Shown: positions 20,611 to 61,154, counted from the whole stretch's first letter. The stretch: DNA of 61,921 bases, filler included, from Limisphaerales bacterium (GCA_044225505.1; 3 parts of 3 records of this genome joined end to end with filler, not necessarily neighbours in it); one strand, 5' to 3'. Notes: generated from the letters alone by a model not told the origin. Program-made: numbers and translations.

Positions 20611-20710
20611 NNNNNNNNNNNNNNNNNNNNNNNNNNNNNNNNNNNNNNNNNNNNTTAATTAATTAANNNNNNNNNNNNNNNNNNNNNNNNNNNNNNNNNN
20701 NNNNNNNNNN
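20611..20710. other. Assembly gap with artificial TTAATTAATTAA linker
   Basis: 100 nt of N surrounding a 12-mer (20656-20667) with stops in all six frames. Confidence 0.97.
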
Positions 20711-20814: not shown

Positions 20815-23800
20815 CTACGGTTTCTTGATAAGCCGGTAGAAGCTGGTTTTTCCTCCCAAATCAGCAGCATGCAGCGTGAGGGTTTTGACGCTGCCCGCAC
20901 TGGATGCGCCAGCGATGTTGACGTCGGTCCAAGAGCCTGCCGCCAGGCTTGAGCTGGTCTGGAGGACAAAGCCCGTGTCCGGAAGGGTCCAGCTAAGAGC
21001 GTAGCCGGCAGCTTCTCCGGCAACTTGGATGCTGTCCGGCGCGGCCGCTTGTTTGACCCAAGTCCAGGCCCGTCCGCCCCCGGCGGGATTCAAATCAGGA
21101 CCAGGAAAAGAATCATCGATAGCGGCGGCGCGAGGTGTCCCCTCGATCTGAATTCGGCCAAACTCAGCGGACTGTCCGACTTGATCGGGTGTATTGGCCT
21201 GAACTCCGAAAAACGCGGTGACTTTACCGCCAAACAGCAATGGCAACGCGCCGCCATCGGGGATGGTGATGGCGCTACTGGCGCCGTTGGGAGCCGTCAA
21301 AGTGACTCCGGAATCGTTCACAAAGCTCATGCTCCAGGTGCCAATGACACCGGACGCGCTATCCACTTGCCCTAGAGTTCCTGCGCTATACAAGAAGGCG
21401 TTCGCTGAGGGCTCGTTGGTTTTATATCGGAACCAGCCGGTCGCCGTTCCGTCGGGCAACGCTTGGATATCGAACATGACGATATTCGGGTCTTCGTAAT
21501 CCGGCGCGACATTCCCGGAAGTGTCAGGCACCAGGAAGATGTGAGCCTGAAAACCGGCGAAGGCCGTTCCCGGAAACTTCGTGAGGGTCAGCGCATAGGT
21601 GACAGGATTGGCACCGGCACCAATCCAACCGTAATCACTCGAGGTCGTCTCGGTGGCGATACTCTGGCGATCGTATTGGCCAGGAGCCGCGGTCAAGGTC
21701 AGTCCGCCGTGAACGGGCGCAATGGACAATTCGGGCGAGGCCGCTGGAGGCAACGGAGCGACCGTGGTGAGTTCCACCGTCGCTTCGGCTGGAGCACTCT
21801 TGGACACAGCATCACCGACGATCAACTCAAACCGGAGTCTCGCCGCCGCGGTCAGCGTTGTTGTCTCGAATGACGGTTGGGCCGAGTCCGGGTTTTTCAA
21901 TGTCACGGGCGGGCCGTCAATCTGGCGCCAAGTGTAGGTGAGTGCGTCGCCGTCCAAGTCGTAGCTGGCGCTTCCGTCCAGGGTGACGGTCTGAGGTTCC
22001 CCCAATACCAGAAGGCTCGGGGCCGAGGCCAAGGCCACGGGCGGTCGGTTGGGCTGTGCGGCGAGCGGCCCGAGCGCTGCGGAAGTCCAGGTATTCGGAT
22101 GGTTCACGTCGGCGGCGGGTGGCCAGATTTTGACCTGCGCAAAGAGGTTAGGGAAATAGTGAACGATCATGAAGCCGGACTCATGATTCCAACCTGCCAG
22201 CAAGGAATCCGCAATGCGCAACTCGGCGCTCCACGCTCCATCCCCGAGCACTACCGCGCCCGTGAAACCGGATGCGACCGGCTGCACCACCATTCCAGAG
22301 CCGTTGCCCGCGACCTGAGACAGGATTCCGTCTTCGCTAATGCCAAATCCAACGTCAGAACTCTGCGAGTTGGCGTCACGACTGCCATCGAGGTCGAAGT
22401 AGATGCCGACCGAAGCGGGAAGGTTCGGTGTGGTGGTATAGGCGAGATCGGTAAAGGCGACATACAAATAGCCGCCGCTATGGACCAGGCGCACGTCGGT
22501 CGGCGTCCGGTTTCCATTGTTGGGGCGGATTCGCACCAAAGCAGCGGTGGCATAGGCCGCGTCAGCCGCAAGCCCGTCCAGAACCGGAGCGGGACCCTCG
22601 GGAATTTCCACGGGCAAAACGCGGAGCTGCACATTGGCCGATCCAGTTGCCCCATCACTGTCCGCGGCGGTTACCGTTAGGTCGTAGGTCCCCGGCGCGA
22701 GGCTTCGCAACGTCAGATTCTCACCCACGCCCGATCGCGACTCGGGTCCAGCGAGGGCCCAGTGGATCGCGCTGGGGTCGAGGCTCCCGTCGTCTGGGTC
22801 ATAGGCAATGGCACGCGCGTTGATCGGCGCGGTGCTGGGGAAGGCTTGCTGATTGCGCACGCCGTGGATCTGCAAGATCGGCGCTTGTTTTGGTAAGGCG
22901 AAAGGCTCGGTAATGGCGATTTCCGTATGCAGGCCATCGGTCGCGAGGACGCGCAGCCGGCACTGGGCGCCGCCCCGGAGCAAAGTGGTGCTTACGACCA
23001 TTCCTGGAGAAGGATCGCGCACTTGCAGCGCTTGCCACGTGGCGCCGTCATCGTTGCTGAATTGAGTGGTGAACAAGAGTGCATCCCCGTCCGCGTCGGT
23101 CCCTGTCCAAGATAGTCTGAGCGTATGCGCATCCAGATCGATCACAGGCGCATCAAGCTTGAGAACGGGCGAGTTCGCGCCCGCGACGATTTCAGCCAAG
23201 ACTTTGCCTTCGGTCACCAGTTGAATGCGCGTGACGCCTTCGACGTAAGGAACCGCTTGGGAAAAGCGCAAGACCTCCGCGGGTCCTTCCGAAGTCGAAC
23301 TCACCGCCACGGGCTGCTCGAGTAATGGGGCCGCTTGAGGGTCGCCGAGCAAGCGCAGTCGATAAGGTGCATCAACAGGGAGCGCGGCCGCGGCGTCGAG
23401 CGACCGCTGCACTTTAACCGGATCCAACGTGCCTGCGGGATACTGCCAGGCCGGGAGCAAAACGGCCTCGCCAGTTTCGGGATAGATCGTCCCGGTCACG
23501 CGGAAGATAGCTGGGTGCGGCCCGATCATCGCGGGCGCAGCTGGGACGTTGGCCAGGGCGGCATGAGTGCCTCCGGTCGAATCCCCGAGAGAGGAGACTC
23601 CCGCTGGAATCGAAGCGACCAGGGCATTCCAGCTGAACGGCGAAACCCAACGCGGGCTGCCGTAAGTCATCATGTCCGCGGAGGCACTGGGAAGAATCAG
23701 CGTGTCGGTCAGCCAATCATAGCCGATCGGTGCCCCGGCATTGGTCAAGTCCGTGATGCCCAGGGTGCAGGGGTCTTGCCCACCGGGTTCGACGTCTAGA

Positions 23801-25932: not shown

Positions 25933-26123
25933 AACGGTGCACGGAAACTGAATCTGTCCCCGCAGCCGGAGCCCCGAGACCTGGCGGATCGACTGCCTTC
26001 TCCCAACCATTCCCATCAACTACTGAATAGAAAGGCCATGGAGATTACAGACTATCTTTAAATCAAGGAGCGCCTGTGACTTATGGAGCGAGGTTGTGTC
26101 CGTGCGGGTTCCGCGCATGGAGC

Positions 26124-41345: not shown

Positions 41346-41445
41346 NNNNNNNNNNNNNNNNNNNNNNNNNNNNNNNNNNNNNNNNNNNNTTAATTAATTA
41401 ANNNNNNNNNNNNNNNNNNNNNNNNNNNNNNNNNNNNNNNNNNNN
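41346..41445. other. Assembly gap with artificial TTAATTAATTAA linker
   Basis: 100 nt of N around the 12-mer at 41390-41401. Confidence 0.97.
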
Positions 41446-42212: not shown

Positions 42213-45200
42213 TCAGCGGTATTCCGTGACCCATTCGCGCGTGCCAGCAGGCATGGTCATGCGCGATTTCTTGCCGCCCGGCCATTGCACCTCCAATTCG
42301 CATGCCCCTGGGAAGCGAGGCAAGACGGCCACCACGCTGTCTTGACTGAGATATCCGGAGCCCGCGTGGATTTCACGAACCGGTCGAGTTGTGCCTTCCG
42401 ACGACAGTCGGAGAACAGCACCGATCCCCGCGGGATTGTGGTCCGGACCGCGGAGACGAATCCGAACTCCGGCTTGTGCCCACAGATTTTGGAAAAGCCT
42501 GGTCGGACCGTTGTTCTGACAGACGACCAGGTCGATCTTTCCGTCTTCGTTGAAGTCTCCCGCGGCAGCACTTCGTTGTTCTCCATAGACCTGAATCCCC
42601 GAGGCCTGACCGGATACCGGCTGTAATTCGCCGTGGCCATTCCCGAGCATTAATAAGCCGCGCCCTGCGTCGAGTCGCGGGGTGCTCGGCTCGGTTCCAA
42701 AGAAGTTTTGGCTCAGAAAGACATCCTCACGTCCATCCCCGTCAAAGTCAGCCACGACCGGGCTAAAGGCCGGCGCCAACTGTGCCTCCCGTGGCATCGG
42801 TTTAGCCTCAAATCGATCGCCTCGGTTGAGGAACACCAAGGACGCAAGGGTGTTGGCTTGAAGCCGCACTGCCGGACCTCGCGCGGGGGCGAGCACTGCG
42901 TCCAGACGGGCCTCACTAAACGCTCGATGGTTCGCGAACTTGTCGGAAAGGTAGGGCAGGGACGCTATCAACGCATCCAACGGCCGGCGAGGAGCTAGTC
43001 CGTTGATTTCGGGTTCAAACTCCGCTTCGACAACATCGACTAAGCCTCGCCCGCTCAATTCGCCGTAGCGGACCTCGGTGGGGTGTTCGAACGTTGCGCG
43101 ATAGGGACTATTGAGCCCCCAATTCGCCGCAACGATGTCGAGCCGTCCATCACCATCCAGATCTCCAGTGGCGACCCCGTTCCACCATCCCGTCCAACGA
43201 TCCAAACCGAGTTTGGCGCTGAGCTCCTGCAGTGTCCCGTCTCGGGCGGCAAAAACCCGGATTGGTCCCCACTCGCACGCCAGTATCAACTCAGACCGAC
43301 CATCGCCGTCCACGTCGCTGAATACCGCGCCGCCGACCAATCCAATGTTCGCCAAGGCCTTGCTCTTGGCTTGGTCAAGGACAAGGTGGCCACCGCGATA
43401 CCTGTAAATAGCGGAAGTTGCCGCTGTGGGCCAGCGGCCTGGAACAACCCTCCCACCAACGAACAACTCCAAGCCCCCATCGTCATCCAGCGGACCTAAT
43501 GCTAAGGGACCGATGCTCGACTCAAACTCCGGGTTTAATCGCTCGGGTCCGTTTGCGGGCCAGGTATAGCGGGCGATCGTGCTGCCAGTCTTGCCAGGAT
43601 TCTCGTAGTTCGCGGCCGCGATCAGGATCGATGACTGTCCACGTTCGGGAAGCCAGCCGAGCACGCCCAATTGATCGAACGAAACCTGGTTTGTTGTGAA
43701 GGCGTTTTGGATGGGCTGGAATTGCCCTAGTCCATCTCCAAGAAAAAGCCCGGGTGTTCCGCTTTTGCCGCTGCCAATAATGAGGTCATCGTGTCCGTCC
43801 CCGTTTATGTCCCACCAGGCGACTCCTGGGCCAAGTTGACTGAGTCGACGGGGCAAGAGCGGCTGGCGGACAAAGTCGTTATACGGCTCGTCGCGATGAA
43901 AATGATTCAGCTTGGAAGTGACGTCCTGGAAATATGGCTGTGTGGCGAATCCGCTGCCCCGGGGTGAAGCCTCGATGCCCTTCGAATTGGTTGGCTCGTT
44001 CAACGGCGAGTTTGGAATGCTGGAAGATACCGTTGGTTCAGCGACTCCCTCAGCAATCTCGTAAAGCCGGTTGGGTTCAATATTTCGGATGACGATCTTT
44101 TGCCCGCTCCGCCATGTGACCTCCAGAGTCATCGCTCGACTCTGCTTGCCAGCCGCAAATACGATCATGGGCTCGCTTCCGGATAAGTACCGGCCGCCTG
44201 AGACAATCTCCTGACTTTGCATCGGGACGGCGCCACCGAGGAGTCGGACCTTGGCGCCCGTTCCCTCCGTATTGGGCGACCGGCCGCGGAGGCGCACGGC
44301 TAAGCGGCCCGCGGTGGAATTGTTGCGATAAAGCTGCAGAGCTCCATTGCAGTCGTTGAGGGCGAGGTCCATCGCCCCATCATTGTCCAGGTCGCCGACT
44401 GCTATCCCCTGGTGGACGCCAAGCTCGGCGGTGCCCCAAGACTCGGTAACATCCTCGAAACGAAGATTACCCAGGTTCCGAAAAGCGACGATGGGACAGT
44501 GATAGGCAGGGAATCGGCGTGAATTCGTCATTCGATCGAGCGCGGACGCGAGTTGGAGTGTCGTTGGGCTGCTGCCTTTGAGAGGAGCCGAACGCCGGGC
44601 TGACGTGGCGGCAATGGCGTCCCGGTCTTGCACGTCCCGGTAGAAACCAGCAGCGATCAGCAGGTCCTCATATCCGTCGAGATCCACATCCAGGAAGATC
44701 TGCTGCCAAGCCCACTCGGCCGATGAGACGCCGGAGTAATCGGCGATATCCGCGTAGGTACTGTCGCCACGATTCCAGAAGAGCGTGTTGCGCATCACTT
44801 GCGGACGATCCGAAATCACGCCCGCAGGCGGTTGCATGGGATCGAAAGGTGGGCTTTGCGGATTGAAGGCATAGATCTGGCGCTTTCGGAGCCGTGGATC
44901 CCGACTCTGCATGTCTGTGACGAAGAGGTCTAGAAACCCGTCCCGGTCAACATCCGCGAAATCAACTCCCATGGAGCTGAAACAGACGTGGCGCAATGCC
45001 AATGGAGCGATCGCTCGAAAGGTGCCTTTTCCGTCATTGATCCAGATTCGATCCACCGTCCAGAAATCGTTGCAGACATAGAGATCCGGGGCGCCGTCTC
45101 CGTTCAAATCGCGAAAGGACGCAGTCTGACCCCAGTCCAATGGTGGCGCGGTCAGAGGGTTGCCCGCTTCATCTACGAATCGACCCCCTGTCCACGGAAC

Positions 45201-46022
45201 CGCTGTAAACTGTCCCTGGCCGTCGTTGAGGTATAGAATGTCCGGATCTCCGACCTCTCGCACCACATTGTTCAGCACGACCAACCGGTTGGTCAGATCT
45301 GGAGGAATAATGTACTCGCCGTTGCGTCGATACACCTGCACGCTGCCCCGATTCCGAATATCGTCACTGCGATAGTTCGCAACGTAAAGATCCAAGGTTC
45401 CGTTGCCATCCACGTCAGCCAAGGCCATGGTGGCACTTCCAAACTGGGATGTTGTGCCCGCTGCCGCGGTGGCATCGCGAAAGTGGCCCGCGCCGTCATT
45501 CAAAAAGCAGAGGACCCCTTGGTTTAGTGTCGAAACCAACAGGTCTGGAGCGCGATCTCCGTTAACATCGGCGAAGACCGCTCCTCGTTGATATTTACCT
45601 GCGAAAGCCAGTCCCGAGCCCGCTGTGACATTGGTAAAATGCCAATGGCCCAGGTTCCGAAAGAGCGCGCTGGGCGTATCGAGCCCGCAGGCAAATATAT
45701 CCAATCGGCCATCGCCATCGTAATCCCCTAAAGCGATGCCAGAACCGTTTTCCAAAACACGGTTCGTCGCGGCGCTGAATTCAAGCAGGATATTAGTGAA
45801 TTCGATTCCTGTTTGTTTTGGAGAGAGCAAAGTGAATCCGGTTTTGTCAGGACCCGAGACCTCCAGAGAGGTCCAACGCGACTCGGGTGCTCCGTGCCAG
45901 ACTCGTGATTTACCTTCTGCCGCTGAGGTTTCGCCTGGCTTGATCGCCAACCAGGCTACGAACAGTAGCGAGAGTGTGAGCGTTTCGAGTCCGCGTCTGC
46001 CTGGCGCTGCAACTTCCGTCAT
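42213..46022 (-). CDS. FG-GAP/VCBS repeat protein with two ASPIC/UnbV domains (CRTAC1-like)
   Basis: Many D-x-[DN]-G-D-G-x-x-D loops; GAKV…GGRYLSGS and GAVL…GSGYLSQ ASPIC motifs; start could be as far up as 46148. Confidence 0.9.
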   Translation of the reverse strand: MTEVAAPGRRGLETLTLSLLFVAWLAIKPGETSAAEGKSRVWHGAPESRWTSLEVSGPDKTGFTLLSPKQTGIEFTNILLEFSAATNRVLENGSGIALGDYDGDGRLDIFACGLDTPSALFRNLGHWHFTNVTAGSGLAFAGKYQRGAVFADVNGDRAPDLLVSTLNQGVLCFLNDGAGHFRDATAAAGTTSQFGSATMALADVDGNGTLDLYVANYRSDDIRNRGSVQVYRRNGEYIIPPDLTNRLVVLNNVVREVGDPDILYLNDGQGQFTAVPWTGGRFVDEAGNPLTAPPLDWGQTASFRDLNGDGAPDLYVCNDFWTVDRIWINDGKGTFRAIAPLALRHVCFSSMGVDFADVDRDGFLDLFVTDMQSRDPRLRKRQIYAFNPQSPPFDPMQPPAGVISDRPQVMRNTLFWNRGDSTYADIADYSGVSSAEWAWQQIFLDVDLDGYEDLLIAAGFYRDVQDRDAIAATSARRSAPLKGSSPTTLQLASALDRMTNSRRFPAYHCPIVAFRNLGNLRFEDVTESWGTAELGVHQGIAVGDLDNDGAMDLALNDCNGALQLYRNNSTAGRLAVRLRGRSPNTEGTGAKVRLLGGAVPMQSQEIVSGGRYLSGSEPMIVFAAGKQSRAMTLEVTWRSGQKIVIRNIEPNRLYEIAEGVAEPTVSSSIPNSPLNEPTNSKGIEASPRGSGFATQPYFQDVTSKLNHFHRDEPYNDFVRQPLLPRRLSQLGPGVAWWDINGDGHDDLIIGSGKSGTPGLFLGDGLGQFQPIQNAFTTNQVSFDQLGVLGWLPERGQSSILIAAANYENPGKTGSTIARYTWPANGPERLNPEFESSIGPLALGPLDDDGGLELFVGGRVVPGRWPTAATSAIYRYRGGHLVLDQAKSKALANIGLVGGAVFSDVDGDGRSELILACEWGPIRVFAARDGTLQELSAKLGLDRWTGWWNGVATGDLDGDGRLDIVAANWGLNSPYRATFEHPTEVRYGELSGRGLVDVVEAEFEPEINGLAPRRPLDALIASLPYLSDKFANHRAFSEARLDAVLAPARGPAVRLQANTLASLVFLNRGDRFEAKPMPREAQLAPAFSPVVADFDGDGREDVFLSQNFFGTEPSTPRLDAGRGLLMLGNGHGELQPVSGQASGIQVYGEQRSAAAGDFNEDGKIDLVVCQNNGPTRLFQNLWAQAGVRIRLRGPDHNPAGIGAVLRLSSEGTTRPVREIHAGSGYLSQDSVVAVLPRFPGACELEVQWPGGKKSRMTMPAGTREWVTEYR

Positions 46023-46499
46023 GATTCGGTGGGCGCGACGCAAGCCGAAAGCCACCTTTCTTTCCCGTCGAGGCCAGCGGCGGTCGCCCGGGCGATAGTT
46101 TGATCCTCGCGGATGCTTCAAAAAAAGCCGAACGAGTCGTTCGTCCATGAGATCGGTTCCGTGGAAACGTCAGTGATTTAGCTGACCGGTATCTTCCATT
46201 GTCGATACTTTGGTTTCAATCTTGAATTCGTTTCCTTGTCTGACGGAACGGCCGCTGGCGTTTGGATCGGCCTGAGTTGTCAAGGTCCCAAGGCGGCCGT
46301 CGCCTAGGCCGGTGTGAGCTTGGGACAGGCAGGGGGCATTGGAAGCGGCGGTTTGGCCTCTGACCTGGGAGGTTGTGAGTGGCTGACGGCTGACCGTAAC
46401 GATTCGCCCCCAGCGCCGTCTAAACTTGTGATGGTGCGGCTCCTATGAAACCACAAGCATCCGTCGAGTTGTTTTCTTTTGCATGGCTGCTTTAGTCCA

Positions 46500-51430: not shown

Positions 51431-51648
51431 GGAAGTTAGATGTCTATCCTTGGCAAGCTACTGGTGACCCCGTCACGGAGAATGCTTTCCGTAGCCGCCT
51501 CCATTTTTGCGCTATGGAAGTTCTCGCGATTACGGCCCGATGAGGGCAACGAAGCCCTACCTTTTAGGATGGGCCCGATCCTGTTTTGCGAATCAATTTC
51601 GCTCGAAATAATTGCCCTTCGAACCGATCTGAGCGACAATCTTGTCCG

Positions 51649-52938
51649 ATGAAACACTCAGTTCACGTGGCTTTGGTGATCGCCGGCGGTGTGCTCGCTC
51701 TTTCTCCCAATTTATCAGCCGAGGATTGGCCTCAATACCGCGGTCCGGTCGGAAATGGAACTTCGCCCGAGGCAATTTCACCTTGGGCTGATTCGGGTCC
51801 CAAACAACTTTGGAAAACGCCGCTTTCTGAGGGCTTCAGCTCGGTCTCCGTGGCGGATGGGCGAGCGTTCACTTTGGTGGCGCGCCAACTGGAGGGAGCG
51901 AACCGCGAGGTGTGCGTCGCCATGGACGTTAAGACTGGAAAGGAATTGTGGGCTACGCCGCTTGGCATCGCCAAGTACGACGGTGGCGGCGATAGCGGCA
52001 CTCCGGAAAACAAGGGAGGCGACGGGCCTCGTTCGACTCCGAGTGTGGATGGCGATCGCGTTTACGTGCTCGACAACCGGTTGGTGTTGTCCTGTCTCGA
52101 TGCGACCAATGGGAAGTTGATTTGGAAAAAGGACATTATCAAAGAACACGATGGTAAACTGATCTCCTGGCAGAATGCGGCGTCGCCGTTGATTGATGGT
52201 GATCTCGTTTTTGCCATGGGGGGCGGGGCAGGGCAATCGTTGCTCGGGATCAATAAAGCGGATGGGAAAACCGTGTGGAAAAAGGAAGATGATAAAATCA
52301 CCCACGCCACGCCGGTCGCGGCGACCATTCTTGGCACCAGGCAAGTCATCTTCTTTACTCAAGCTGGGTTGGTCTCGATAGCACCCAAGACTGGAGAGGT
52401 GCTCTGGAGGTATAAATTTCCTTATAACGTTTCGACGGCAGCATCACCGGTAGTTTGGAACGATATTGTCTACTGCTCCGCGGGATACAACGTCGGTTCC
52501 GGCGCCGTTAAGATCACCAAGAATGCTTCGGGTTTTTCTGCCGACGAAATCTGGAGAACGAAAGGTAACGGCGTCGCCAATCACTGGAGCACACCCGTCT
52601 GCCATGACGGTTTCCTCTACGGCATTTTCGGTTTCAAACAGTACGGGAGCTGTCCTCTGAAGTGTGTCGAAATTGCGACCGGCAAAGAGATGTGGTCCGA
52701 AGCAGGCTTTGGCGCTGGCAACGTTATTCTCGTGGGCCAACGATTAGTGGTTTTGGGCGATAAAGGCCAAGTGGTTTTGGTGGACCCCAATTCGAAAGGT
52801 TACAAAGAGGTCGCCCGTTATCAGGCAGTGTCGGGAAAATGCTGGTCAACTCCGACGTTTAGCAATGGGAATCTCTTCGTTCGCAGCACGAAGGAAGGGG
52901 CTTGTTTTCAGGTGGAAATGAAGACGGCGGCCCGCTAA
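51649..52938 (+). CDS. Secreted PQQ-binding-like beta-propeller protein
   Basis: Signal peptide, DWPQYRGP, GPRSTP, AASPL, HWSTPV, CWSTP. Confidence 0.9.
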   Translation: MKHSVHVALVIAGGVLALSPNLSAEDWPQYRGPVGNGTSPEAISPWADSGPKQLWKTPLSEGFSSVSVADGRAFTLVARQLEGANREVCVAMDVKTGKELWATPLGIAKYDGGGDSGTPENKGGDGPRSTPSVDGDRVYVLDNRLVLSCLDATNGKLIWKKDIIKEHDGKLISWQNAASPLIDGDLVFAMGGGAGQSLLGINKADGKTVWKKEDDKITHATPVAATILGTRQVIFFTQAGLVSIAPKTGEVLWRYKFPYNVSTAASPVVWNDIVYCSAGYNVGSGAVKITKNASGFSADEIWRTKGNGVANHWSTPVCHDGFLYGIFGFKQYGSCPLKCVEIATGKEMWSEAGFGAGNVILVGQRLVVLGDKGQVVLVDPNSKGYKEVARYQAVSGKCWSTPTFSNGNLFVRSTKEGACFQVEMKTAAR

Positions 52939-52987: not shown

Positions 52988-54145
52988 CTAGGCAGGCGCG
53001 GACGGGTGTGACGTGTCGCAGACGCTGCGGTAAAGCGCTTCGTACTGCGGAACGATGGCTTCCGCCGAGAACCTTGCCTGCGCTCGGATTCGTGCCGCTT
53101 TTCCCTGAGCCGTTCTCAACGCCGGGTCGCGCATGAGTGTTTCCACCGCCGCGACCAAGTCAGCGACATCGCCGGAACGCGCCAAGATCCCGGTCGCGTG
53201 ATTCTCAATTACTTCCGGGATTCCTCCCACGGCCGTGGCGACGCTGGGCCGTCCGAATGCCATGGCTTCGAGGATCCCCAGGCAAAAGCTTTCACTTTCC
53301 GACGTAAATAAGGCGAAATCTGCGACCTGCAGATAGTCTTCCACGTCGTTAACCTTCTCTTTAACGATCAGGCGATCCTTAAGGCCGAGGCGTTCAACGT
53401 CCGGAAGGAAGGGCGCAAAACTTCCACCGGCCAGGATCAGCAACTTGAATCGTTCTCGCGGGCGCAGTCGTGCCACGGTCTCAAGCAGCAGGTCGACCCG
53501 TTTGACCGGGCGCAGATTGGACGAATGCACGATCAGGATTTCGTCTTTCAGCCCCAATTCTTCTCGAACGAGGTGAGCGGGACGGCGTGGCGCGCGCGGG
53601 GCATAGAAGTTGTAAATGACACGCATGTCTCCTTGAAAACCAAGCACCCGCCGGGTTTCATCCCGCAAGTAATTCGAGACTGTCGTGACGGCATCGGAGC
53701 AATTCAACGCGTGGAGAATGGCAGGACCGTATCCTGGATCTCGGCCGAGCAACGTGGTGTCCGTTCCATGCAGAGTCGTCACCACTCGGGGTTGCAGCTC
53801 CTCGGGCAACATCGAGCGGGCGAGGATCGCGGCGGTGGCATGGGGGACTGCGTAATGCACGTGTAACACATCTAATCGATGTTCACGACTCACCTCGGCC
53901 ATGCGCACGGAGAGGGGGAGCGTGTAGTCCGGATACCTGAAAAGCTCGTAGTCGTTGATGATCACCGGGTGAAAGTGGAGGCGGGCGACATCGACCGGGA
54001 GCCGGAAGGGCCTCTCATAACTAATGAAATGGACTTCGTGCCCGCGCCGCGCGAGGTCCTCTCCCAATGCGCAAGCGAGCACTCCGCTCCCGCCCACTGT
54101 GGGATAGCACGTCATCCCAATCCGCATGGGTCGAGACTGGGTCAT
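52988..54145 (-). CDS. bshA: N-acetyl-alpha-D-glucosaminyl L-malate synthase (GT4)
   Basis: IGMTCYPTVGGSG, LHVHYAVPHA, TTLHGTD, HSSNLRPVKRV, SESESFCLGILEAMA. Confidence 0.92.
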   Translation of the reverse strand: MTQSRPMRIGMTCYPTVGGSGVLACALGEDLARRGHEVHFISYERPFRLPVDVARLHFHPVIINDYELFRYPDYTLPLSVRMAEVSREHRLDVLHVHYAVPHATAAILARSMLPEELQPRVVTTLHGTDTTLLGRDPGYGPAILHALNCSDAVTTVSNYLRDETRRVLGFQGDMRVIYNFYAPRAPRRPAHLVREELGLKDEILIVHSSNLRPVKRVDLLLETVARLRPRERFKLLILAGGSFAPFLPDVERLGLKDRLIVKEKVNDVEDYLQVADFALFTSESESFCLGILEAMAFGRPSVATAVGGIPEVIENHATGILARSGDVADLVAAVETLMRDPALRTAQGKAARIRAQARFSAEAIVPQYEALYRSVCDTSHPSAPA

Positions 54146-54146
54146 A

Positions 54147-54875
54147 TTAAAAGCGCCGGGCGCCTGTTCCCAGAGCGATCAGAGACGAGACGACGATTGG
54201 ATCGTTTGGGAAAAGAGCGATGGCATGGCCTATGCCCGCTCTTGCGCCCAGTGCTTGGGCGCGGAGGAGCTGCAGTTCGACATAGTTACGCGTCCGAAGT
54301 TGAGAGGCGTGAGCCTGCATGGATCGCGTCCAGGCCTCCAGAACAGGTGCTTCCGAAACGTTGATGAGCACGGGAGAGATGTCACGAGGCTCGGCGTCCG
54401 AAGTCAGAGCGTAATAGAACAGCTGGCTGGTTGTGTGAGGAGGCAGGGCGCGGAGCTCAGCGAAGCCGCCATACCGCGCCAGTCGGCATGCGTCCCGCAC
54501 CATCCGGCCGAGGCGCGCGTGGTCCGGATGCTGATTTTCCACGAGGCTCGGGGCAAGAACGATTCCCGGTTGCCATTTTCGTATGCTGGCAGCGAGCTGG
54601 ATCGTGTGCGCCGTTTTTACTTCCAAATGAGCGTCTCCGTCCAGTTCGATGAATTCGATCGTGGCGCCGAGCAACGCGGCCCCGGCCTCCGCCTCGCGAC
54701 GCCGCTCTTCGGGTGAACCGTTGGTCGATGCTTCACCGCGCGAGCAGATGACAAAGTGCACCTTTCGGCCTAATTGGGATTCGGAAGCAATCACGCCGCC
54801 GCATCCGAATTCGATGTCGTCCGGATGCGCGCCGAAGACGAGCATGGGCGGCAGATCAATCGGGGAGGTCAACAT
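54147..54875 (-). CDS. bshB1: PIG-L family GlcNAc-malate deacetylase
   Basis: FGAHPDDIEFGCGG, SRGEASTNG, QHPDH, AHASQ; directly upstream of bshA. Confidence 0.85.
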   Translation of the reverse strand: MLTSPIDLPPMLVFGAHPDDIEFGCGGVIASESQLGRKVHFVICSRGEASTNGSPEERRREAEAGAALLGATIEFIELDGDAHLEVKTAHTIQLAASIRKWQPGIVLAPSLVENQHPDHARLGRMVRDACRLARYGGFAELRALPPHTTSQLFYYALTSDAEPRDISPVLINVSEAPVLEAWTRSMQAHASQLRTRNYVELQLLRAQALGARAGIGHAIALFPNDPIVVSSLIALGTGARRF

Positions 54876-55632
54876 AAGCTTCATCAGAGCGGTCAATCGA
54901 ATCGCGGCCAACGAAGGTGATTTCCGGCGTTTCTTCTTTGCGAAGATAGGCCTGTTCACCAGCTCCGGCGATGTAGTGCGTGCATCGGAGCACGGACTGC
55001 ATCCACCGCAAGCGGGTGTCGCGAGTTGGGCTGACCTGCTCTTTGCTGAACGGCACGAGCGGCAACGTCACGAACGAGTCTCCGCCTTCATGCAGCTGCA
55101 ACGCTGTTTCCGTGTAACGAGCGCGGACAATTTCGCCTTCATATGGCACGTCGACAAAGAACTCGGCAATCTCGCAGGCCGCTCGACGCACGGTCGGGTC
55201 GCTCGAGCGGACGACGCGAATTCCCTCGAGCAAGCCCATCTGCCGGTATGAGGCCAGGCAAAAGTCGGCTGGAGTTTGTCCGGAGGTCTCTTTGAAACGG
55301 TCGATCAGGCGAGTCGACACGTAATTCGGGAGCTGTTGGACCGTCTTGGCCTGCCATTCTGGGGCAATCCGCTTCAAGAAGAGCGGTGAGAACTTCCGCT
55401 GCACTTTATTTTCGACGGCGAAGTTCAGCACCGCAGGAATTTGAGTCGTGCGGTGTCGCAGAATGGTGCGTGTTTCTCTCGGATCGTGATCGCTGTCATG
55501 GCAAAAGAAAATAATCTCACCTCCGATTTCCGATTGGAGCCGCCGAGCGGTTTGAATTTTGGCAAATAAGAAACGCCGCGGGAAGAAGCCGCAGGGTTGT
55601 TGCCCGAAGGCGATGACAGGGCTGGTGCTCAT
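54856..55632 (-). CDS. Short (258 aa) BshC-like putative cysteine-adding enzyme
   Basis: GQQPCGFF…K, FF..DSDHD..E and SP..TR..MQ…YIAGAGEQAY parallel the BshC motifs as I recall them (GQQxGL, EDHD..E, RPxxQ…GPGExxY); operonic with bshB1/bshA. Confidence 0.7.
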   Translation of the reverse strand: MSTSPVIAFGQQPCGFFPRRFLFAKIQTARRLQSEIGGEIIFFCHDSDHDPRETRTILRHRTTQIPAVLNFAVENKVQRKFSPLFLKRIAPEWQAKTVQQLPNYVSTRLIDRFKETSGQTPADFCLASYRQMGLLEGIRVVRSSDPTVRRAACEIAEFFVDVPYEGEIVRARYTETALQLHEGGDSFVTLPLVPFSKEQVSPTRDTRLRWMQSVLRCTHYIAGAGEQAYLRKEETPEITFVGRDSIDRSDEAYVDLPD

Positions 55633-57332
55633 GCGGCCTGGGAAGGGGTTGGGCCGTTGGCTGCGGACAACGCCACTTGCAGGACCAGGCTAAAAACCAC
55701 GCAGGCCGCGCAGCCGATCACGTTGTACCAAAGATAGCTAATGCTCAGCGAGCAATACATCGCGATGACCAGAGTCTGAGCCGTCACCGCCGCAATGAAT
55801 ACTGCCGTCCCGCGCACGCGCTTGAGAAAGAACGCCACCAGGAAAATGCCCAGCACGACGCCGTAAAAGATGGAAGCGATAATGTTCAAGGCCTCGATGA
55901 GGTTCTCGGCAAAACTGGCGAAGAGCGCAAACCCAACCGCAAAGCTGCCCCACAGCGCGGTGAACCATTTGGCTACCCGGACGTTGCGCGCCTCGTCATG
56001 CGCGGCGAGTGGTCGGAAATGCCTCCACAGATCGATGGTGGTCGTGGCTGCGAGAGCGTTCAGTTCTCCCGCTTTTGAAGAGAGGGCGGAGGCAAACATG
56101 ACGGCGATCAGCAAGCCAATCGCTCCGTGTGGAAGCTGCGATAGAATAAACGTGATGAACACGTAATCGGAATCCTTCACTTTCGCTCGTGGATCCGCGG
56201 AGAGCAGTGCCTCTTTCGCTTCTTTACGAACATTGTCGACCGCCCGTTGCGCGTCAACCATTGCGGCGCGGGCCTTCGCTCGGGTCGGTGCGTCCGGAGT
56301 TGCGCGCGAGGCGAACCAGGCGCTGACCGTCTGTCGTTTGGCTTCGTGCAATGCGGCATGCTTGGCCTCTATCGCACGAAATTTAGCTCCGTCCGCGGAT
56401 TGCGTGTGCCTATCCCATTCGGCCCGGTTGAAAAAGACGGGGGTATTCGGCTGAAATTGGAAGAACACAAACAGGAGAGCCCCGACCATGACGATGAAGA
56501 ACTGCATCGGTATCTTCAAGACGGCGTTAAACATGAGGCCGAGACGCCCTTCTCGCGCGCCGCCTCCACCGATGTATCGTTGGACCTGCGATTGATCCGT
56601 CCCGAAATAGGAGAGCGAAAGGAACAGACCTCCCAGAAGGCCGCTCCAGAATGTGTAGCGCTTGTCTGGGTCTATCGAGAAGTCCACGGCTTGCAGTTTG
56701 CCCATGGCTCCCGCCATCTCCAACGCGCCGCTGGGCAGTTTCGCAACGAGGATGACAAAGGCCGTCAACATGCCGCCAAAAATGACGGCCATCTGCCATT
56801 TCTGTGTCAGGCTTACGGCGGCACTCCCCCCAGTTACAGTGTAAACGATGACGACCAGCCCGGTGCCCAGGATGGTCAGATTCAAGCGCCATCCCAGGAC
56901 GCTCGAGAGAATGATCGCGGGGGCGTAGATCGTCACGCCGCTCTGCACTCCCCGTTGCAGCAAAAAGAGGCTCGCGCCCAGGAGCCGGGTCTTAGCGTCA
57001 AACCGTCGGCCGAGATATTCGTAGGCGGTGTAAACGCCAAGGCGACGATAGATCGGCAGAAATACCGCGCAGACGATGATGAGAGCGATCGGGAGTCCGA
57101 AATAGTTTTGCACGAATGCAATACCGCTCTCGTACGCCTGGCCAGGGAGCGAGAGATAAGTGACGGTGCTGGCTTGCGTGGCCATGATCGAGAGGCCGAT
57201 CGTCCCCCACTTGGTCGAGCGACTTCCCTTTAAGTACGTATCGAGGTGATCGGTGTGGCGGGTGCGCCACGTGCCGTAGGCAGCGATGCCCAGCATGGTC
57301 CCCAGCAGCACAACCCAATCCAACAGATTCAT
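55629..57332 (-). CDS. Sodium:solute symporter (SSS family)
   Basis: LSIMATQAS, TAYEYLGRRF, YTVTGG, SYFGTDQSQVQRY; many TM helices. Confidence 0.93.
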   Translation of the reverse strand: MNLLDWVVLLGTMLGIAAYGTWRTRHTDHLDTYLKGSRSTKWGTIGLSIMATQASTVTYLSLPGQAYESGIAFVQNYFGLPIALIIVCAVFLPIYRRLGVYTAYEYLGRRFDAKTRLLGASLFLLQRGVQSGVTIYAPAIILSSVLGWRLNLTILGTGLVVIVYTVTGGSAAVSLTQKWQMAVIFGGMLTAFVILVAKLPSGALEMAGAMGKLQAVDFSIDPDKRYTFWSGLLGGLFLSLSYFGTDQSQVQRYIGGGGAREGRLGLMFNAVLKIPMQFFIVMVGALLFVFFQFQPNTPVFFNRAEWDRHTQSADGAKFRAIEAKHAALHEAKRQTVSAWFASRATPDAPTRAKARAAMVDAQRAVDNVRKEAKEALLSADPRAKVKDSDYVFITFILSQLPHGAIGLLIAVMFASALSSKAGELNALAATTTIDLWRHFRPLAAHDEARNVRVAKWFTALWGSFAVGFALFASFAENLIEALNIIASIFYGVVLGIFLVAFFLKRVRGTAVFIAAVTAQTLVIAMYCSLSISYLWYNVIGCAACVVFSLVLQVALSAANGPTPSQAA

Positions 57333-57484
57333 GAAAATGCTCGTGTAAACACGGCGAGCAGGGCCACCACCAGGACGAACCATCCGAAGACGAACAAATA
57401 AACCATTCCCCAACTCCGAAACCCTGGCACGCCCGGCAGTTCATCGTCGGGCGGAGTTTTGGGGAGAGGTTGGGCGGGAATCAT
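57329..57484 (-). CDS. 51-aa single-TM protein, putative symporter accessory subunit (absent from the ORF track)
   Basis: MIPAQPLPKTPPDDELPGVPGFRSWGMVYLFVFGWFVLVVALLAVFTRAFS; ATGA overlaps with both neighbours. Confidence 0.8.
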   Translation of the reverse strand: MIPAQPLPKTPPDDELPGVPGFRSWGMVYLFVFGWFVLVVALLAVFTRAFS

Positions 57485-60000
57485 TTTCCGAGAGAGATAA
57501 GGTTCGCCAGTAGCCGATATGCCCCGGGCACTCCGGCGGGGAGTTGGCGAAAGAAGGCTAGTCCCGTATAAACGTAATAGCCCTTGCCATGCTTGGCGAT
57601 CAACAGGCCGCTCGTCAAAGGTTCCTCACCTGGGTCGCTCATCGCCAGAAGTGTGTCATACTGCGCTTTGGACCAGCTGCTGGGAAAATAGGCGCCTCGC
57701 TCTTGCACCCAGCCGTCAAAATCCTGCGATGTAATGCGGTTCGGAGAAATCAGCGCTGCATGGTCAGGGATCAGAAACGTGACAGGCGCGCGCTCATCCG
57801 TGACGCGAAGTTGCGGGGCCGGGCCTTGAATCGAGAGCGGATAAGGTCCCAGTGCTGGCACATTCAGGCCGTTGGGCCGGTTATACTGCACCACGACGGT
57901 TCCTCCCTGTTCGACATATTCAAACAGATTCGTCACGGTCGACGCCAGGTCTTTACGCTCGTTGAACGCGCGGACTCCCAACACCACGGCGTCGAGCCCG
58001 CGCAGCTTCTCGGTGGTTAAATCCGCTCCTTTCAAGGACGTGACGGCGCAGCCCATCTCTGCCAACGCCTGAGCTGTACTATCGCCCGCCCCAGACACGT
58101 AGCCAATGTTGCGGGCGCGCACGGCAAAGTCCAAACTCAGAGCTCGACTCTGAGCGGGCGGTTGCAGCAGCAGCAAGGGCAAGTGCGGATAGTTGATTTC
58201 AATTCGGTCGTTGGAGTAGCTGGACCCGTTCACGGTGGCAATCGCGGATAAACGCGCCGAGGTTGGCTGGGGCGGAGCGCTCACGTCAAAGCGGACACTC
58301 ACCTTGCTTCCAGCCTCGTCCAGCTGGAACGGCTGCTCGGCAGGCGAGGTTCTCCACCCATCCGGCGTGTCCAGGCGCAGGCGTCCAGTTTGGTTCGCGC
58401 GTCGCGCCACAATTTCCACCACCACCGGTCGTGTGCTTCCGGGCCGGAACAGGGACACCAGAGATTCGAACCTTAACGACACTGGCGGAACCACATCAAC
58501 GCGGCGGTGCCGTTCCTTGCCATTGGCCTGTTCAGGGTATCTCGGCTCGTCCGCAACCACCAGTTGTTGATCACCGACGGCAAAAACATATTCGATGGGA
58601 ATGGCTGGGGCGTTTTCCGGGGTCCCAATCAACTGCGGATCGTCAACCCGGAAGATCCCACTGCTCCCTTCGCGTCGCAGCCAGTAAGGCTGTGTTAACG
58701 CCAAGTCGGGCGGCGCTCGGAAGAGTCCTTCCGCTGTCCGCCTTTGAGTCGAGATCAAGTTTTCGGAGGCGATCGCTGGTGACTCGAGGTGCTGACCACG
58801 CGTCTCCAACCAGCGGACGGGGACTGTGCCACTCAACGACACGGTATAGCGAAGTTTGAGGACTTCCCCTGGCACAATCTCGGGCCGGTCAGCGACTGTC
58901 TCTACCGACAATCCAAGGCAAGCTTGCAGGATGCGATCGAGTTGGGCGCGCTTGTCCGCGAGCACTGCATCGGACGGCAAGTTGCGGAGTTTCGTCCGAA
59001 TCGTCAACAACGCGGGGACCGACGCGGACGGGTTGTTCGTCTCGAAACTGTCGATGATCTTTGCTGTCAGAGGGCCAATTTCTGCTCCTCCAGGCACTCT
59101 CGCCCACGTCGTATCGATGCCGTCAAAGATGTCATTGGTTGCCGAAGCCCCTCCCAGGATCATGAACGTCTGGACATTGGGACCGCTGCCTCCCCGCCCG
59201 CCAAAATTGCTGAATCCTTGCGTAATGTGCATGGCGCGGCTGCGCCCAGCAATGGTGCTGAAGGATTCACCCGTGACCCGGTCAGTCCCGGCAATATCCG
59301 TGGTGACAGTGGGGCCTGTTGGCCCCGCGTTGTTCCGTCCCCCAAAGCCATTCCAAGCGACTCGTTTTGGCTGCCAGATCGACAGTCCTTGCGCCAGTTG
59401 CTCCGGATACGCCTTGGGATCTCCCGCCAGGTTGAACGCTTCGACCCCTAGAATCCCCGACGCGGTGTGATGACCATGCCCTCCGCTGCCCGGAGGTATG
59501 GGAAACCTTGTCACAATCACATCCGGCCGAAACTGGCGGATGATCCGGACGACATCGCCCAGGACCTGATCCCGATCCCAGAAGCGCAGCGTCTCTTCCG
59601 GCGTCTTGGAGAAGCCAAAATCGATCGCTCGGGTGAAGAACTGTCGCCCGCCATCCAGTCGTCGTGCCGCTAGCAGTTCCTGAGTACGGGCCACGCCCAG
59701 TTTTTCATCAAACTCAGGCCCGATCTCGTTCTGGCCACCGTCGCCTCGGGTCAGGGAGAGATAAGCCGTTCGATAGCCTCGACCGCGCGCGAAGTAAGTG
59801 ATGAGCGCGGTGTTTTCGTCGTCCGGGTGTGCGCCGATGTGGAGCACGGTCGCCACGGTGGAGAAACTCCGGAGTTCCTCCAGGATTGCGGCAGGCGTGG
59901 TGGGAAGAAACTCGGTGGCCAGGGCAGGCGTGGCTAAAAGCCACACCGCCCCCAAGCTAGCCGAGGTTAGAAGAGCGCGCGCGCGCCGAACGGCACTCAT
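57481..60000 (-). CDS. Secreted large PIG-L/LmbE family deacetylase/amidase with Ig-like and C-terminal class I glutamine-amidotransferase-like domains
   Basis: Signal peptide (…ATPALA|TE), AHPDDE, TRGDGGQN, DFGFSK, HGHH, VVQYN, GWVQERG. Confidence 0.88.
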   Translation of the reverse strand: MSAVRRARALLTSASLGAVWLLATPALATEFLPTTPAAILEELRSFSTVATVLHIGAHPDDENTALITYFARGRGYRTAYLSLTRGDGGQNEIGPEFDEKLGVARTQELLAARRLDGGRQFFTRAIDFGFSKTPEETLRFWDRDQVLGDVVRIIRQFRPDVIVTRFPIPPGSGGHGHHTASGILGVEAFNLAGDPKAYPEQLAQGLSIWQPKRVAWNGFGGRNNAGPTGPTVTTDIAGTDRVTGESFSTIAGRSRAMHITQGFSNFGGRGGSGPNVQTFMILGGASATNDIFDGIDTTWARVPGGAEIGPLTAKIIDSFETNNPSASVPALLTIRTKLRNLPSDAVLADKRAQLDRILQACLGLSVETVADRPEIVPGEVLKLRYTVSLSGTVPVRWLETRGQHLESPAIASENLISTQRRTAEGLFRAPPDLALTQPYWLRREGSSGIFRVDDPQLIGTPENAPAIPIEYVFAVGDQQLVVADEPRYPEQANGKERHRRVDVVPPVSLRFESLVSLFRPGSTRPVVVEIVARRANQTGRLRLDTPDGWRTSPAEQPFQLDEAGSKVSVRFDVSAPPQPTSARLSAIATVNGSSYSNDRIEINYPHLPLLLLQPPAQSRALSLDFAVRARNIGYVSGAGDSTAQALAEMGCAVTSLKGADLTTEKLRGLDAVVLGVRAFNERKDLASTVTNLFEYVEQGGTVVVQYNRPNGLNVPALGPYPLSIQGPAPQLRVTDERAPVTFLIPDHAALISPNRITSQDFDGWVQERGAYFPSSWSKAQYDTLLAMSDPGEEPLTSGLLIAKHGKGYYVYTGLAFFRQLPAGVPGAYRLLANLISLGK

Positions 60001-60003
60001 GCG

Positions 60004-60573
60004 CTATTTCTTCACGGCAAATGGCACAGAATACTCTGTGTTCTCCCAAGATAATTTGAGCAGGCCGCCGCCGCTGGGATTCTTCTGCACGGCCATGGTG
60101 AATTGTTCAACCGGGGAAGCGGTCGCCGCCTTGGTCAAATCGACCCGGGCCAAGTCGTTCTTCTCGTCGACGGGAACACCCCATTGGCCGATCTTCTTGC
60201 TGATGGCGAGTTTGGCGGTTCCCGCTTCGTCCGGCACCATATAAAGAGTGTAAGCACCGGCAGGCAGGTCAAAGCCTCCCAAGGTAATGGGCTGTTGGGT
60301 GATGAGCAACGTCGCTTCGTCCGATCCCATCCGCCAGGCCTTGCCATACGGCACCAGCCCGCCCCAAATCTTTCGCACTTCGCCTGTTTTCGGACTTTTG
60401 GTGTAAGGGCGGCCGTAAGTGACCGTGACGCGATTGCCATCAATGACCGCGCTCGTTGTTTCGTGGGGACTATTGCCGCCCGTGGACGCTGCGCGTGTTG
60501 GGGATTGCGCGTTGCTGAGGGCCGTCGTGACGACCAGCGCGGCTAAGCTAAGCGCGTATAGAGTTCTGTTCAT
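60004..60573 (-). CDS. Secreted DUF2911 family protein
   Basis: SP…VTYGRP, GGLVPYGKAWRMGSDEAT, PAGAYTL, EQFT, LSWENT; signal peptide. Confidence 0.88.
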   Translation of the reverse strand: MNRTLYALSLAALVVTTALSNAQSPTRAASTGGNSPHETTSAVIDGNRVTVTYGRPYTKSPKTGEVRKIWGGLVPYGKAWRMGSDEATLLITQQPITLGGFDLPAGAYTLYMVPDEAGTAKLAISKKIGQWGVPVDEKNDLARVDLTKAATASPVEQFTMAVQKNPSGGGLLKLSWENTEYSVPFAVKK

Positions 60574-60840
60574 GGAATTAAGGTTGTTGCCAAGATTTTG
60601 GTTTGCAGTCCGCAACTAAGCCCCGGACAACTGGTTGTACCCGGCTTGCGGCGATGCATGAATTTCAAGACAGTCTCCATCACCAATCGGTTTCACTCAA
60701 TGCTGATTTTTTTAAAGGACCGCACCAGCTTGAATATCCCATCCTTGCGATCGCGGTCCCCCACAACGGCATTGGGTCGATTGGTTAGGAGCAAATTGCT
60801 CTCGGTTTGCCACTTTGAGCCTCCTTCGCTGAGGACCGCT

Positions 60841-60912
60841 TGAGAACAGGATGAGAACAGGATGATACCGGGATCACGATCCTGTTCTGATAGGGGTCTC
60901 ATCCTGTTCTCA
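60841..60912. repeat. 35-bp imperfect inverted repeat built of 11-bp units (TGAGAACAGGA)
   Basis: Arms 60841-60875 and 60878-60912; outer 16 bp perfectly complementary. Confidence 0.85.
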
Positions 60913-60930
60913 TAGGGTTCTGAACGTATC

Positions 60931-61018
60931 AATCCCGCTGGAATCCCGCTCCAATCCCAGTCATACCCCACTAGTGAAGGAGGTATGACTGGGATTGAAC
61001 TGGGATTCCACCGGGATT
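60931..61018. repeat. 37-bp imperfect inverted repeat built of 11-bp-phased AATCCC/GGGATT units
   Basis: Arms 60931-60967 and 60982-61018, 4 mismatches, 14-nt loop. Confidence 0.85.
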
Positions 61019-61154
61019 ACTCCGTGCTGTCGATGGCACCGTCCGCCAGGCCTATCGGTTGATTGCGATACGTAGCCGCCGTTGGAGACAATTGTCGCCA
61101 ACGTCTCACGCATTGGGAACGGGCTGTTCCCAAAACGGCCAGGCAACCGCGATT

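Follow-up and report, generated by a model that had tools for sequence, protein, structure and literature searches.

A conserved seven-gene unit in Verrucomicrobiota pairs a proposed bacillithiol-type synthesis module, including a predicted miniature BshC, with a putative extracytoplasmic hydrolase and importer

We analyzed a 61,921-nt stretch of DNA from a Limisphaerales bacterium (GCA_044225505.1; hereafter the window), in which seven minus-strand genes between positions 52988 and 60573 encode, from 5′ to 3′, a DUF2911 protein, a large LmbE/PIG-L hydrolase, a small membrane peptide, a sodium:solute symporter (SSS), a protein that we term mini-BshC, a BshB1-like deacetylase and BshA. We propose that these genes make up one conserved operon of two modules, one synthesizing a bacillithiol-type thiol and the other hydrolyzing a related compound outside the cytoplasm and importing the product, so that its core would feed back into synthesis. 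We put the probability of this reading at roughly 55%. It is based on gene content, homology, fold, gene order, co-occurrence and the predicted binding of the peptide to the symporter. The seven-gene unit is a variant of the known bacillithiol pathway and not a new kind of system.

As computed from the sequence, the seven open reading frames (ORFs) run head to tail and all start with ATG. The DUF2911 and PIG-L genes are separated by 3 nt, after which the PIG-L and peptide genes overlap by 4 nt (ATGA), as do the peptide and symporter genes (ATGA-type). Another 4-nt ATGA overlap joins the symporter gene to the mini-BshC gene and thus lies across the boundary of the two modules. The mini-BshC and BshB genes overlap by 20 nt, and a single nucleotide separates BshB from BshA. 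An initial annotation of this DNA had described seven co-oriented genes, and recomputation from the sequence agrees exactly with its coordinates and junctions (+3, −4, −4, −4, −20 and +1 nt). The identities it had given to the genes also hold, with BshA above its family cut-off, BshB1 as the best family of the deacetylase, and SSS, DUF2911 and PIG-L all matched. Its label "BshC-like" for the 258-aa protein proved right by fold and profile comparison, even though family models do not detect this protein. A consensus scan found one promoter-like site compared to 2.2 expected, with no excess inside the unit; the 13 terminator-like sites, compared to 8.7 (standard deviation 2.8) in shuffled sequences, are uninformative.

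The window combines three or more contigs, with runs of N between them (176 N in total; 20611-20710 and approximately 41346-41445). Positions 20711-41345 correspond to contig G000:C250 and positions 41446-61921 to G000:C251:1-20476, the end of this contig being the end of the window. The possibility that the operon is an artifact of joined contigs is ruled out, since all of its genes lie on the single contig G000:C251.

Table 1. The seven genes of the unit, with window coordinates and the basis of each assignment.
Product	Length (aa)	Coordinates	Strand	Basis
DUF2911 protein	189	60004..60573	-	PF11138
LmbE/PIG-L zinc hydrolase, multidomain, predicted exported	839	57481..60000	-	PF02585
Single-pass membrane peptide, predicted symporter small subunit	51	57329..57484	-	no family match
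Sodium:solute symporter (SSS/SLC5 family)	567	55629..57332	-	TIGR00813, PF00474
Mini-BshC (predicted)	258	54856..55632	-	fold and profile comparison
BshB1-like PIG-L deacetylase, cytoplasmic (putative reaction: N-acetylglucosaminyl-malate to glucosaminyl-malate)	242	54147..54875	-	TIGR04001 (best), PF02585
BshA, N-acetyl-alpha-D-glucosaminyl L-malate synthase (GT4)	385	52988..54145	-	TIGR03999

The synthesis module resembles the BshA-BshB-BshC pathway of Bacillus, Deinococcus-Thermus, Bacteroidota and Chlorobi in having an above-cut-off BshA, a BshB1-like deacetylase and a protein with the BshC fold. BshA belongs to its equivalog family (TIGR03999, 386.7 bits compared to a cut-off of 273.7; model positions 1-374 of 375) and is the sole match above that cut-off in the genome. 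The deacetylase is a member of the LmbE-like/PIG-L superfamily (PF02585, 79.5 bits). Unlike the canonical pathway, the third enzyme has 258 residues instead of 520-540 and is negative for PF10079, translational coupling ties the three genes to an envelope module, and YpdA and YtxJ were not found in the genome of the window.

In family searches, the 258-aa protein has no match in Pfam or NCBIfam, even at E values up to 10, and this includes PF10079 (Rossmann-like_BshC), for which no match was found anywhere in its own genome (95% complete). Among PDB sequences, phmmer returned nothing and a profile search returned only an antibody chain (E 2.2). Nevertheless, the AlphaFold2 (AF2) model of the protein is compact and confident, with a predicted local distance difference test score (pLDDT) of 94.5 and a predicted template modeling score of 0.91, and its top Foldseek match is Bacillus subtilis BshC (4wbd, 1.4e-10). 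In VIA-align, 243 of the 258 residues superpose on 4wbd with a Z score of 20.4 and a root-mean-square deviation of 2.9 Å, compared to a Z score of 14.5 for the runner-up, class I lysyl-tRNA synthetase, and at most 9.5 for other class I synthetases. An hhalign comparison of the 258-aa family profile with 12 canonical BshC proteins gave E 3.8e-6 and a probability of 87.3% over 214 columns, pairing residues 2-232 with residues 86-354 of BshC (approximately 530 aa).

Within the aligned span, 10 of the 19 columns that are invariant in the 12 BshC proteins are identical in the 258-aa protein (Q12, K25, D48, D50, E53, S201, R207, G223, E226 and Y229), and the motifs GQQ...K, DHD..E, SP....R and Y.GxGExxY are retained. 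The protein keeps the Rossmann-type core; approximately 85 residues at the N terminus and the coiled-coil region at the C terminus are missing. The full BshC architecture, an N-terminal region and a coiled-coil dimerization domain in 520-540 aa, is therefore not present, and the range of the BshC chain covered by VIA-align (81-518) is gapped. The small size is a property of the whole family: there are 6705 homologs of about equal length, the best 120 of which, the window's own copy aside, are 73-80% identical. Every source name shown for these homologs is "hypothetical protein." A phmmer search of 1.84 billion representatives gave 243 matches; the best 150 are 49-475 aa long, align to the query partly or over about their own length, and include none resembling a full-length BshC. 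A truncated pseudogene is ruled out by the equal-length homologs together with the confident model. From predicted structure and profile similarity, we identify the 258-aa protein as a stripped-down, previously unrecognized BshC homolog, mini-BshC.

To examine gene order, we used a one-genome-per-species scan with the 839-aa protein, which confirmed 209 relatives. The best 80 loci comprise 78 of Verrucomicrobiota type and two of Bacteroidota; order was read from the 78, counting only loci long enough to tell. DUF2911 lies upstream of PIG-L in 62/73 loci and the SSS gene lies downstream in 65/65. Mini-BshC comes next in order in 59/60 loci, BshB follows between mini-BshC and BshA in 54/56, and BshA is found in 47/52, the same proportion in which all four downstream genes stand in order. 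The misses concern all bsh genes in L058, BshB in L071, and BshA in L090, L091, L094 and L096; some of them reflect insertions that push genes past the position limits used. The seven-gene arrangement is more than chance and represents one conserved unit.

These counts bear on the simplest alternative, in which the seven genes are mere neighbors without a common function and the 258-aa ORF is the remnant of a degraded bshC. Such a reading would account for a protein that is short compared to BshC and matches no family. It is very hard to reconcile with thousands of equal-length homologs, a compact and confident model, an order kept in 47/52 loci and start and stop codons that overlap between genes, and we regard it as extremely improbable.

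We observed Verrucomicrobiota-type clusters, 64-78% identical, on contigs titled Candidatus Acidoferrum, Bifidobacteriaceae and Akkermansia muciniphila (L038, L075, L032 and L039). The genomes labeled Acidoferrum and Bifidobacteriaceae also hold mini-BshC (approximately E 1e-125). These carriers are probably mislabeled or misbinned metagenome-assembled genomes (MAGs).

Mini-BshC takes the place of canonical BshC both in gene order and across genomes. In a phylum sample of 151 genomes, BshA is above its cut-off in eight, mini-BshC is present in seven, the large PIG-L gene is present in the same seven, and PF10079 is matched in one, G070, which is not among the mini-BshC genomes. G070, the eighth BshA-positive genome, has neither mini-BshC nor the large PIG-L gene; it carries the canonical genes in the order BshC-type, bshB, bshA, so that mini-BshC in the window occupies the position before bshB-bshA that canonical bshC occupies in G070. 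In a class sample of 301 genomes, mini-BshC occurs in 42 (25 of 156 genera) and the PIG-L gene in the identical 42, with neither found alone. PF10079 is matched in 0/42 of these genomes; its single match in the class sample is a 45-residue fragment in a MAG outside the 42 (G577). In Bacteroidota, PF10079 is matched in 31/31 genomes searched. The shared gene position and the complementary distribution of PF10079 suggest that mini-BshC replaces BshC.

A few genomes have split the cluster and retained every part. In G538, assembled as one contig, and in G580 of the same genus, the order is DUF2911-SSS-miniBshC-BshB-BshA, with the PIG-L gene located elsewhere (2.5 Mb away in G538), and in G153 the break falls between the SSS and mini-BshC genes. 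Splitting has thus affected three genomes in two lineages at two breakpoints.

Turning to the envelope module, the 839-aa protein matches PF02585 with 61.3 bits. Across 18 sequences from two phyla, its residues H58-P-D60-D61 and H175/H178 do not vary, with a spacer of 114 or 117 residues between the second and third ligands. This fits the LmbE-like motif as described in a passage of PMC4101496, namely HXDD plus H with a spacer of 97-148 residues separating ligand 2 from ligand 3, and places the protein in the superfamily. The same source states that all known LmbE-like enzymes act on N-acetylglucosamine (GlcNAc) or N-acyl-glucosamine (N-acyl-GlcN) cores. The AF2 model (pLDDT 86.1) consists of a disordered N-terminus at approximately residues 1-29 that reads as a signal peptide, the PIG-L domain at approximately 35-300, a helical linker, a beta-sandwich at approximately 364-622 and an alpha/beta domain at 631-839. 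The catalytic domain alone finds named structural relatives: MshB (4.5e-9), LnmX, diacetylchitobiose deacetylases and BshB BC1534. With its predicted signal peptide, the protein reads as an exported zinc hydrolase. Since an importer accompanies it, its site of action would be outside the cytoplasm.

Two sets of relatives of the hydrolase were noted in passing. The genome holds a second, weaker large-PIG-L relative (G000:C337:77378-78028), 39% identical over residues 50-271, in a 661-aa open frame. Bacteroidota contain divergent PIG-L paralogs of 630-830 aa with N- and C-terminal domains like those of the 839-aa protein.

The DUF2911 protein belongs to PF11138 (127.1 bits compared to a cut-off of 27; E 6.3e-37) and covers the full model, positions 1-145 of 145. 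Its length is 189 aa from the ATG; starting instead at the TTG further upstream (60615) would lengthen it to 203 aa. A signal-peptide-like N-terminal stretch leads us to presume that it is periplasmic. A search of PDB sequences found no usable solved relative. We note that many loci carry a tandem DUF2911 pair upstream of PIG-L (L017, L021-L025, L035, L054, L057, L058, L069 and L087), in which one copy is close to that of the window and the other is approximately 25-33% identical; the window shows a single copy, upstream of which its contig turns into repeats.

The 567-aa protein is a member of the SSS family (TIGR00813, 223.6 bits compared to 184; PF00474, 125.2 bits compared to 22.8). Its nearest solved relatives are carboxylate or anion carriers, namely SMVT (1.3e-42), NIS, SMCT1 and the sialic acid carrier SiaT (3.7e-39), compared to approximately 1e-23 for the sugar carriers (SGLT). 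A hydrophilic and probably helical insertion of approximately 90 residues (approximately residues 300-400) divides the Pfam match in two; relatives also carry this insertion, in variable form.

Two-component SSS transporters with a small membrane subunit are known from the VC_2705 family and from ActP/YjcH-type pairs. The unit resembles them in that a gene for a small membrane protein comes just before the SSS permease gene and is translationally coupled to it, and the two products are predicted to bind each other. Unlike the VC_2705-type pairs, the 51-aa peptide belongs to no family, with no match in Pfam or NCBIfam even at E values up to 10, and the symporter falls outside the VC_2705-type subfamily (TIGR03648, 38.9 bits compared to a cut-off of 320.75). 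The peptide is single-pass, with a PGxPGFRxW..VY motif followed by the transmembrane helix, and P20, W25 and Y29 are invariant. A homologous small ORF directly precedes the SSS start in 65/66 loci by script and is visible by eye in the 66th; an analogous ORF, also of 51 aa, occurs in L078, a locus from Bacteroidota. Complex prediction for peptide and symporter gave a score of 0.81 (median of three runs) compared to 0.00 for the best control, with at least 76% of contacts agreeing between runs and a partner pLDDT of at least 70. For calibration, 116 of 157 solved complexes attained that mark, as did 2 of 215 mismatched pairs; these counts hold only roughly here because custom alignments were used. 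The peptide is therefore predicted to be a small subunit that binds the symporter, and the pair is a separate, undescribed small-subunit type.

These components suggest the following scheme. BshA would join UDP-GlcNAc to malate, the BshB-like enzyme would strip the acetyl group, and mini-BshC, in place of the canonical 520-540-aa BshC, would add cysteine and yield a bacillithiol-type thiol. Outside the cytoplasmic membrane, the exported PIG-L enzyme may cleave the N-acyl or N-acetyl bond of a glucosamine-based (GlcN-malate-based) compound. Likely substrates would be GlcNAc-malate or bacillithiol in free, disulfide or S-conjugated form, originating from the cell's own export or from neighboring cells. 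The two-subunit sodium symporter would then import the carboxylated product, most likely GlcN-malate, which could rejoin the pathway at the mini-BshC step. We consider such a salvage loop of extracytoplasmic hydrolysis, GlcN-malate import and cysteine re-ligation plausible.

Comparable chemistry is known from the cytoplasmic S-conjugate amidases Bca (BshB2) and Mca, which share the superfamily and the HXDD plus H motif with the 839-aa enzyme. As described in passages of PMC4101496 and PMC5790435, these enzymes cleave the Cys-GlcN amide and the GlcN core is recycled, and we propose like chemistry for the 839-aa enzyme. It is unlike them in its signal peptide, its beta-sandwich and alpha/beta domains, its importer partner and its scores on the Mca and BshB models. 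There is a further, purely functional parallel. Gram-negative bacteria salvage periplasmic glutathione through gamma-glutamyltranspeptidase and the uptake of its products. The logic of a periplasmic thiol, an exported hydrolase and re-import is alike, with a different enzyme family, thiol and transporter.

Several observations weigh against our reading, on both the synthesis side and the envelope side. With respect to synthesis, mini-BshC is invisible to PF10079 and to BLASTP, which gave no significant match to the canonical BshC of G070, so that its assignment comes from the predicted structure and the 87%-probability profile match. According to a passage of PMC5790435, in vitro reconstitution of the BshC reaction has yet to be achieved even for the canonical enzyme. 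The deacetylase scores 132.1 bits on the BshB1 model TIGR04001, under the equivalog cut-off of 182.5, although BshB1 is still its best NCBIfam family (BshB2, 26.9 bits; MshB, 22.4 bits). In the genome, YpdA/Bdr was not found (best 45 bits compared to a cut-off of 340), nor was YtxJ/BrxC. GshB was not found in this 95% complete genome, nor was any other recognized thiol route, which also counts in favor of a bacillithiol-type thiol. The failure to find YpdA/Bdr, YtxJ/BrxC and GshB makes a role of the product as a classical cytoplasmic redox buffer uncertain.

Some of these observations fit the alternative that the 258-aa protein, a ligase with the BshC fold, attaches a group other than cysteine or uses another acceptor. 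The product would then be a GlcN-malate derivative, possibly without a thiol, and the envelope module would handle that compound. Identity to BshC of only approximately 18-19%, the differences at 9 of the 19 BshC-invariant positions, the loss of the N-terminal and coiled-coil regions, the absence of detectable YpdA and YtxJ, and the sub-threshold BshB score are all consistent with this alternative. The retained motifs, the bshC gene position, the distribution complementary to PF10079 in BshA-positive genomes and the lack of a recognized substitute thiol route argue for addition of cysteine, and we consider a non-cysteine ligase improbable.

With respect to the envelope, we infer all of the substrates as well as the export step, the flux direction and what DUF2911 does, and no exporter was identified. 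The co-occurrence within Verrucomicrobiota is mostly explained by physical linkage. In Bacteroidota, 192 of 201 sampled genomes are BshA-positive. Full-length PIG-L orthologs occur in 55 of the 201 (hand count, E below 1e-100) and weaker paralogs in 21 more. In 8 of 12 loci the SSS gene immediately follows PIG-L, and L078 additionally has the small peptide and a DUF2911 gene with the PIG-L/SSS pair. The pair never adjoins bshA in Bacteroidota; it lies at least 46 kb away or on a different contig. Moreover, 116 of the 192 BshA-positive genomes lack a PIG-L match, so that the envelope module is accessory rather than a component of synthesis. BshA is present in every one of the 76 genomes with a PIG-L match (P 0.012, or 0.052 for the 55; uncorrected for kinship), a co-occurrence that is weak because the base rate is already 192/201. 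As a single case, a gamma-glutamyltranspeptidase gene, which also encodes an exported thiol-conjugate-cleaving enzyme, was seen in L078 (a Cyclobacteriaceae MAG; 17796-19502), approximately 3 kb from the set of PIG-L, peptide, SSS and DUF2911-TPR genes.

This distribution raises the alternative that the envelope module serves general scavenging of amino sugars, such as GlcNAc derived from chitin, peptidoglycan or glycoconjugates. It would be linked to the bsh genes through UDP-GlcNAc supply or inheritance and would not act on bacillithiol directly. The separation of the pair from bsh genes in Bacteroidota and its absence from most BshA-positive genomes there are in keeping with this explanation, as are the generic structural matches of the PIG-L domain (MshB, LnmX and diacetylchitobiose deacetylases) and its beta-sandwich, a domain common in glycan-active exported enzymes. 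The 839-aa protein also scores only 26-44 bits on the Mca, BshB1 and BshB2 equivalogs, whose cut-offs are 182-277 (Mca TIGR03446, 43.9 bits compared to 277.15; BshB2 TIGR04000, 26.5 bits compared to 195.25), and thus lies outside these families. Scavenging does not readily explain why the PIG-L gene and mini-BshC occur in the same 42/301 genomes and never singly, why clusters split at two different points retain all parts, or why the SSS gene stays with mini-BshC-BshB-BshA where PIG-L has moved away. The ATGA overlap between the SSS and mini-BshC genes, the closer similarity of the symporter to carboxylate than to sugar carriers, and the presence of BshA in 76/76 Bacteroidota genomes with PIG-L also argue for a tie to bacillithiol. 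We therefore regard scavenging as possible but unlikely.

The initial annotation had gone further, describing the PIG-L/SSS/DUF2911 genes as a cassette of other phyla and proposing that their link to the bsh genes reflects a recycling loop. The cassette does occur elsewhere, as seen in the 8 of 12 Bacteroidota loci, the L078 set and Atlas clusters labeled Acidobacteriota and Bacteroidota. Linkage to the bsh genes confined to this one genome was to count against the proposal; instead, the order is conserved class-wide and the PIG-L and bsh modules share the same 42 of 301 genomes. Linkage of the cassette to bshA holds in Verrucomicrobiota and is absent in Bacteroidota, where the cassette is also dispensable for BshA-positive genomes. 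Taken as a whole, the interpretation is borne out in part: the identities, translational coupling, cassette and class-wide linkage speak for it, and the missing linkage in Bacteroidota and the failure to find YpdA/Bdr and YtxJ/BrxC speak against it.

On the bshA side, the unit is closed by a convergent gene (51586-52938, plus strand) encoding a 450-aa PQQ-like/BamB-like beta-propeller protein with a signal-like N-terminal stretch; 49 nt lie between the two stop codons. Upstream of DUF2911, the 1.1 kb up to the contig end (60821-61921) contains no long ORF and belongs to a dispersed repeat family; approximately 90 BLAST matches (70-100% identity) are scattered over many of the genome's contigs, often close to their ends. 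This stretch includes large imperfect hairpins at 60827-61025 with arms of 44 and 49 nt and could be an element resembling a miniature inverted-repeat transposable element or a repetitive extragenic palindrome. Elsewhere in the window, very long ORFs are found on the minus strand at 20815-26019 (1734 aa) and 42213-46148 (1311 aa), and gene neighborhoods are not readable across the N joins at 20611-20710 and approximately 41346-41445. An Rfam search of the whole window gave zero matches.

In our literature search, we found no paper combining LmbE, a solute symporter and bacillithiol, and, judging mostly by titles and the openings of abstracts, none on bacillithiol in Verrucomicrobia. A 2018 survey that required full-length bshA-C orthologs lists Verrucomicrobia among the major lineages without a documented or predicted low-molecular-weight thiol (PMC6282198). 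The cluster described here predicts a bacillithiol-type thiol in 42 of 301 class genomes and 25 of 156 genera, and the bshC step would have appeared to be missing in Verrucomicrobiota because a half-size homolog escapes the family models. The 258-aa core is a simpler object for BshC biochemistry and, if the assignment is true, would be the smallest natural form of the enzyme.

More speculatively, the unit might represent an extracytoplasmic bacillithiol cycle of Verrucomicrobiota, in which the thiol buffers redox state or metals in the periplasm and is recaptured by the amidase, a DUF2911 helper and the two-subunit symporter, with the minimal 258-aa core adding cysteine; we offer this tentatively and consider it doubtful in this full form. 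The set of exported PIG-L, small peptide, SSS and DUF2911 is widespread; its full-length hydrolase, for which there is no studied member, occurs in 55 of 201 sampled Bacteroidota genomes. A passage of PMC5790435 describes the import and export of bacillithiol as an open question. The tie to the bsh genes gives the exported hydrolase a first testable function and bears on how bacillithiol may cross the membrane.

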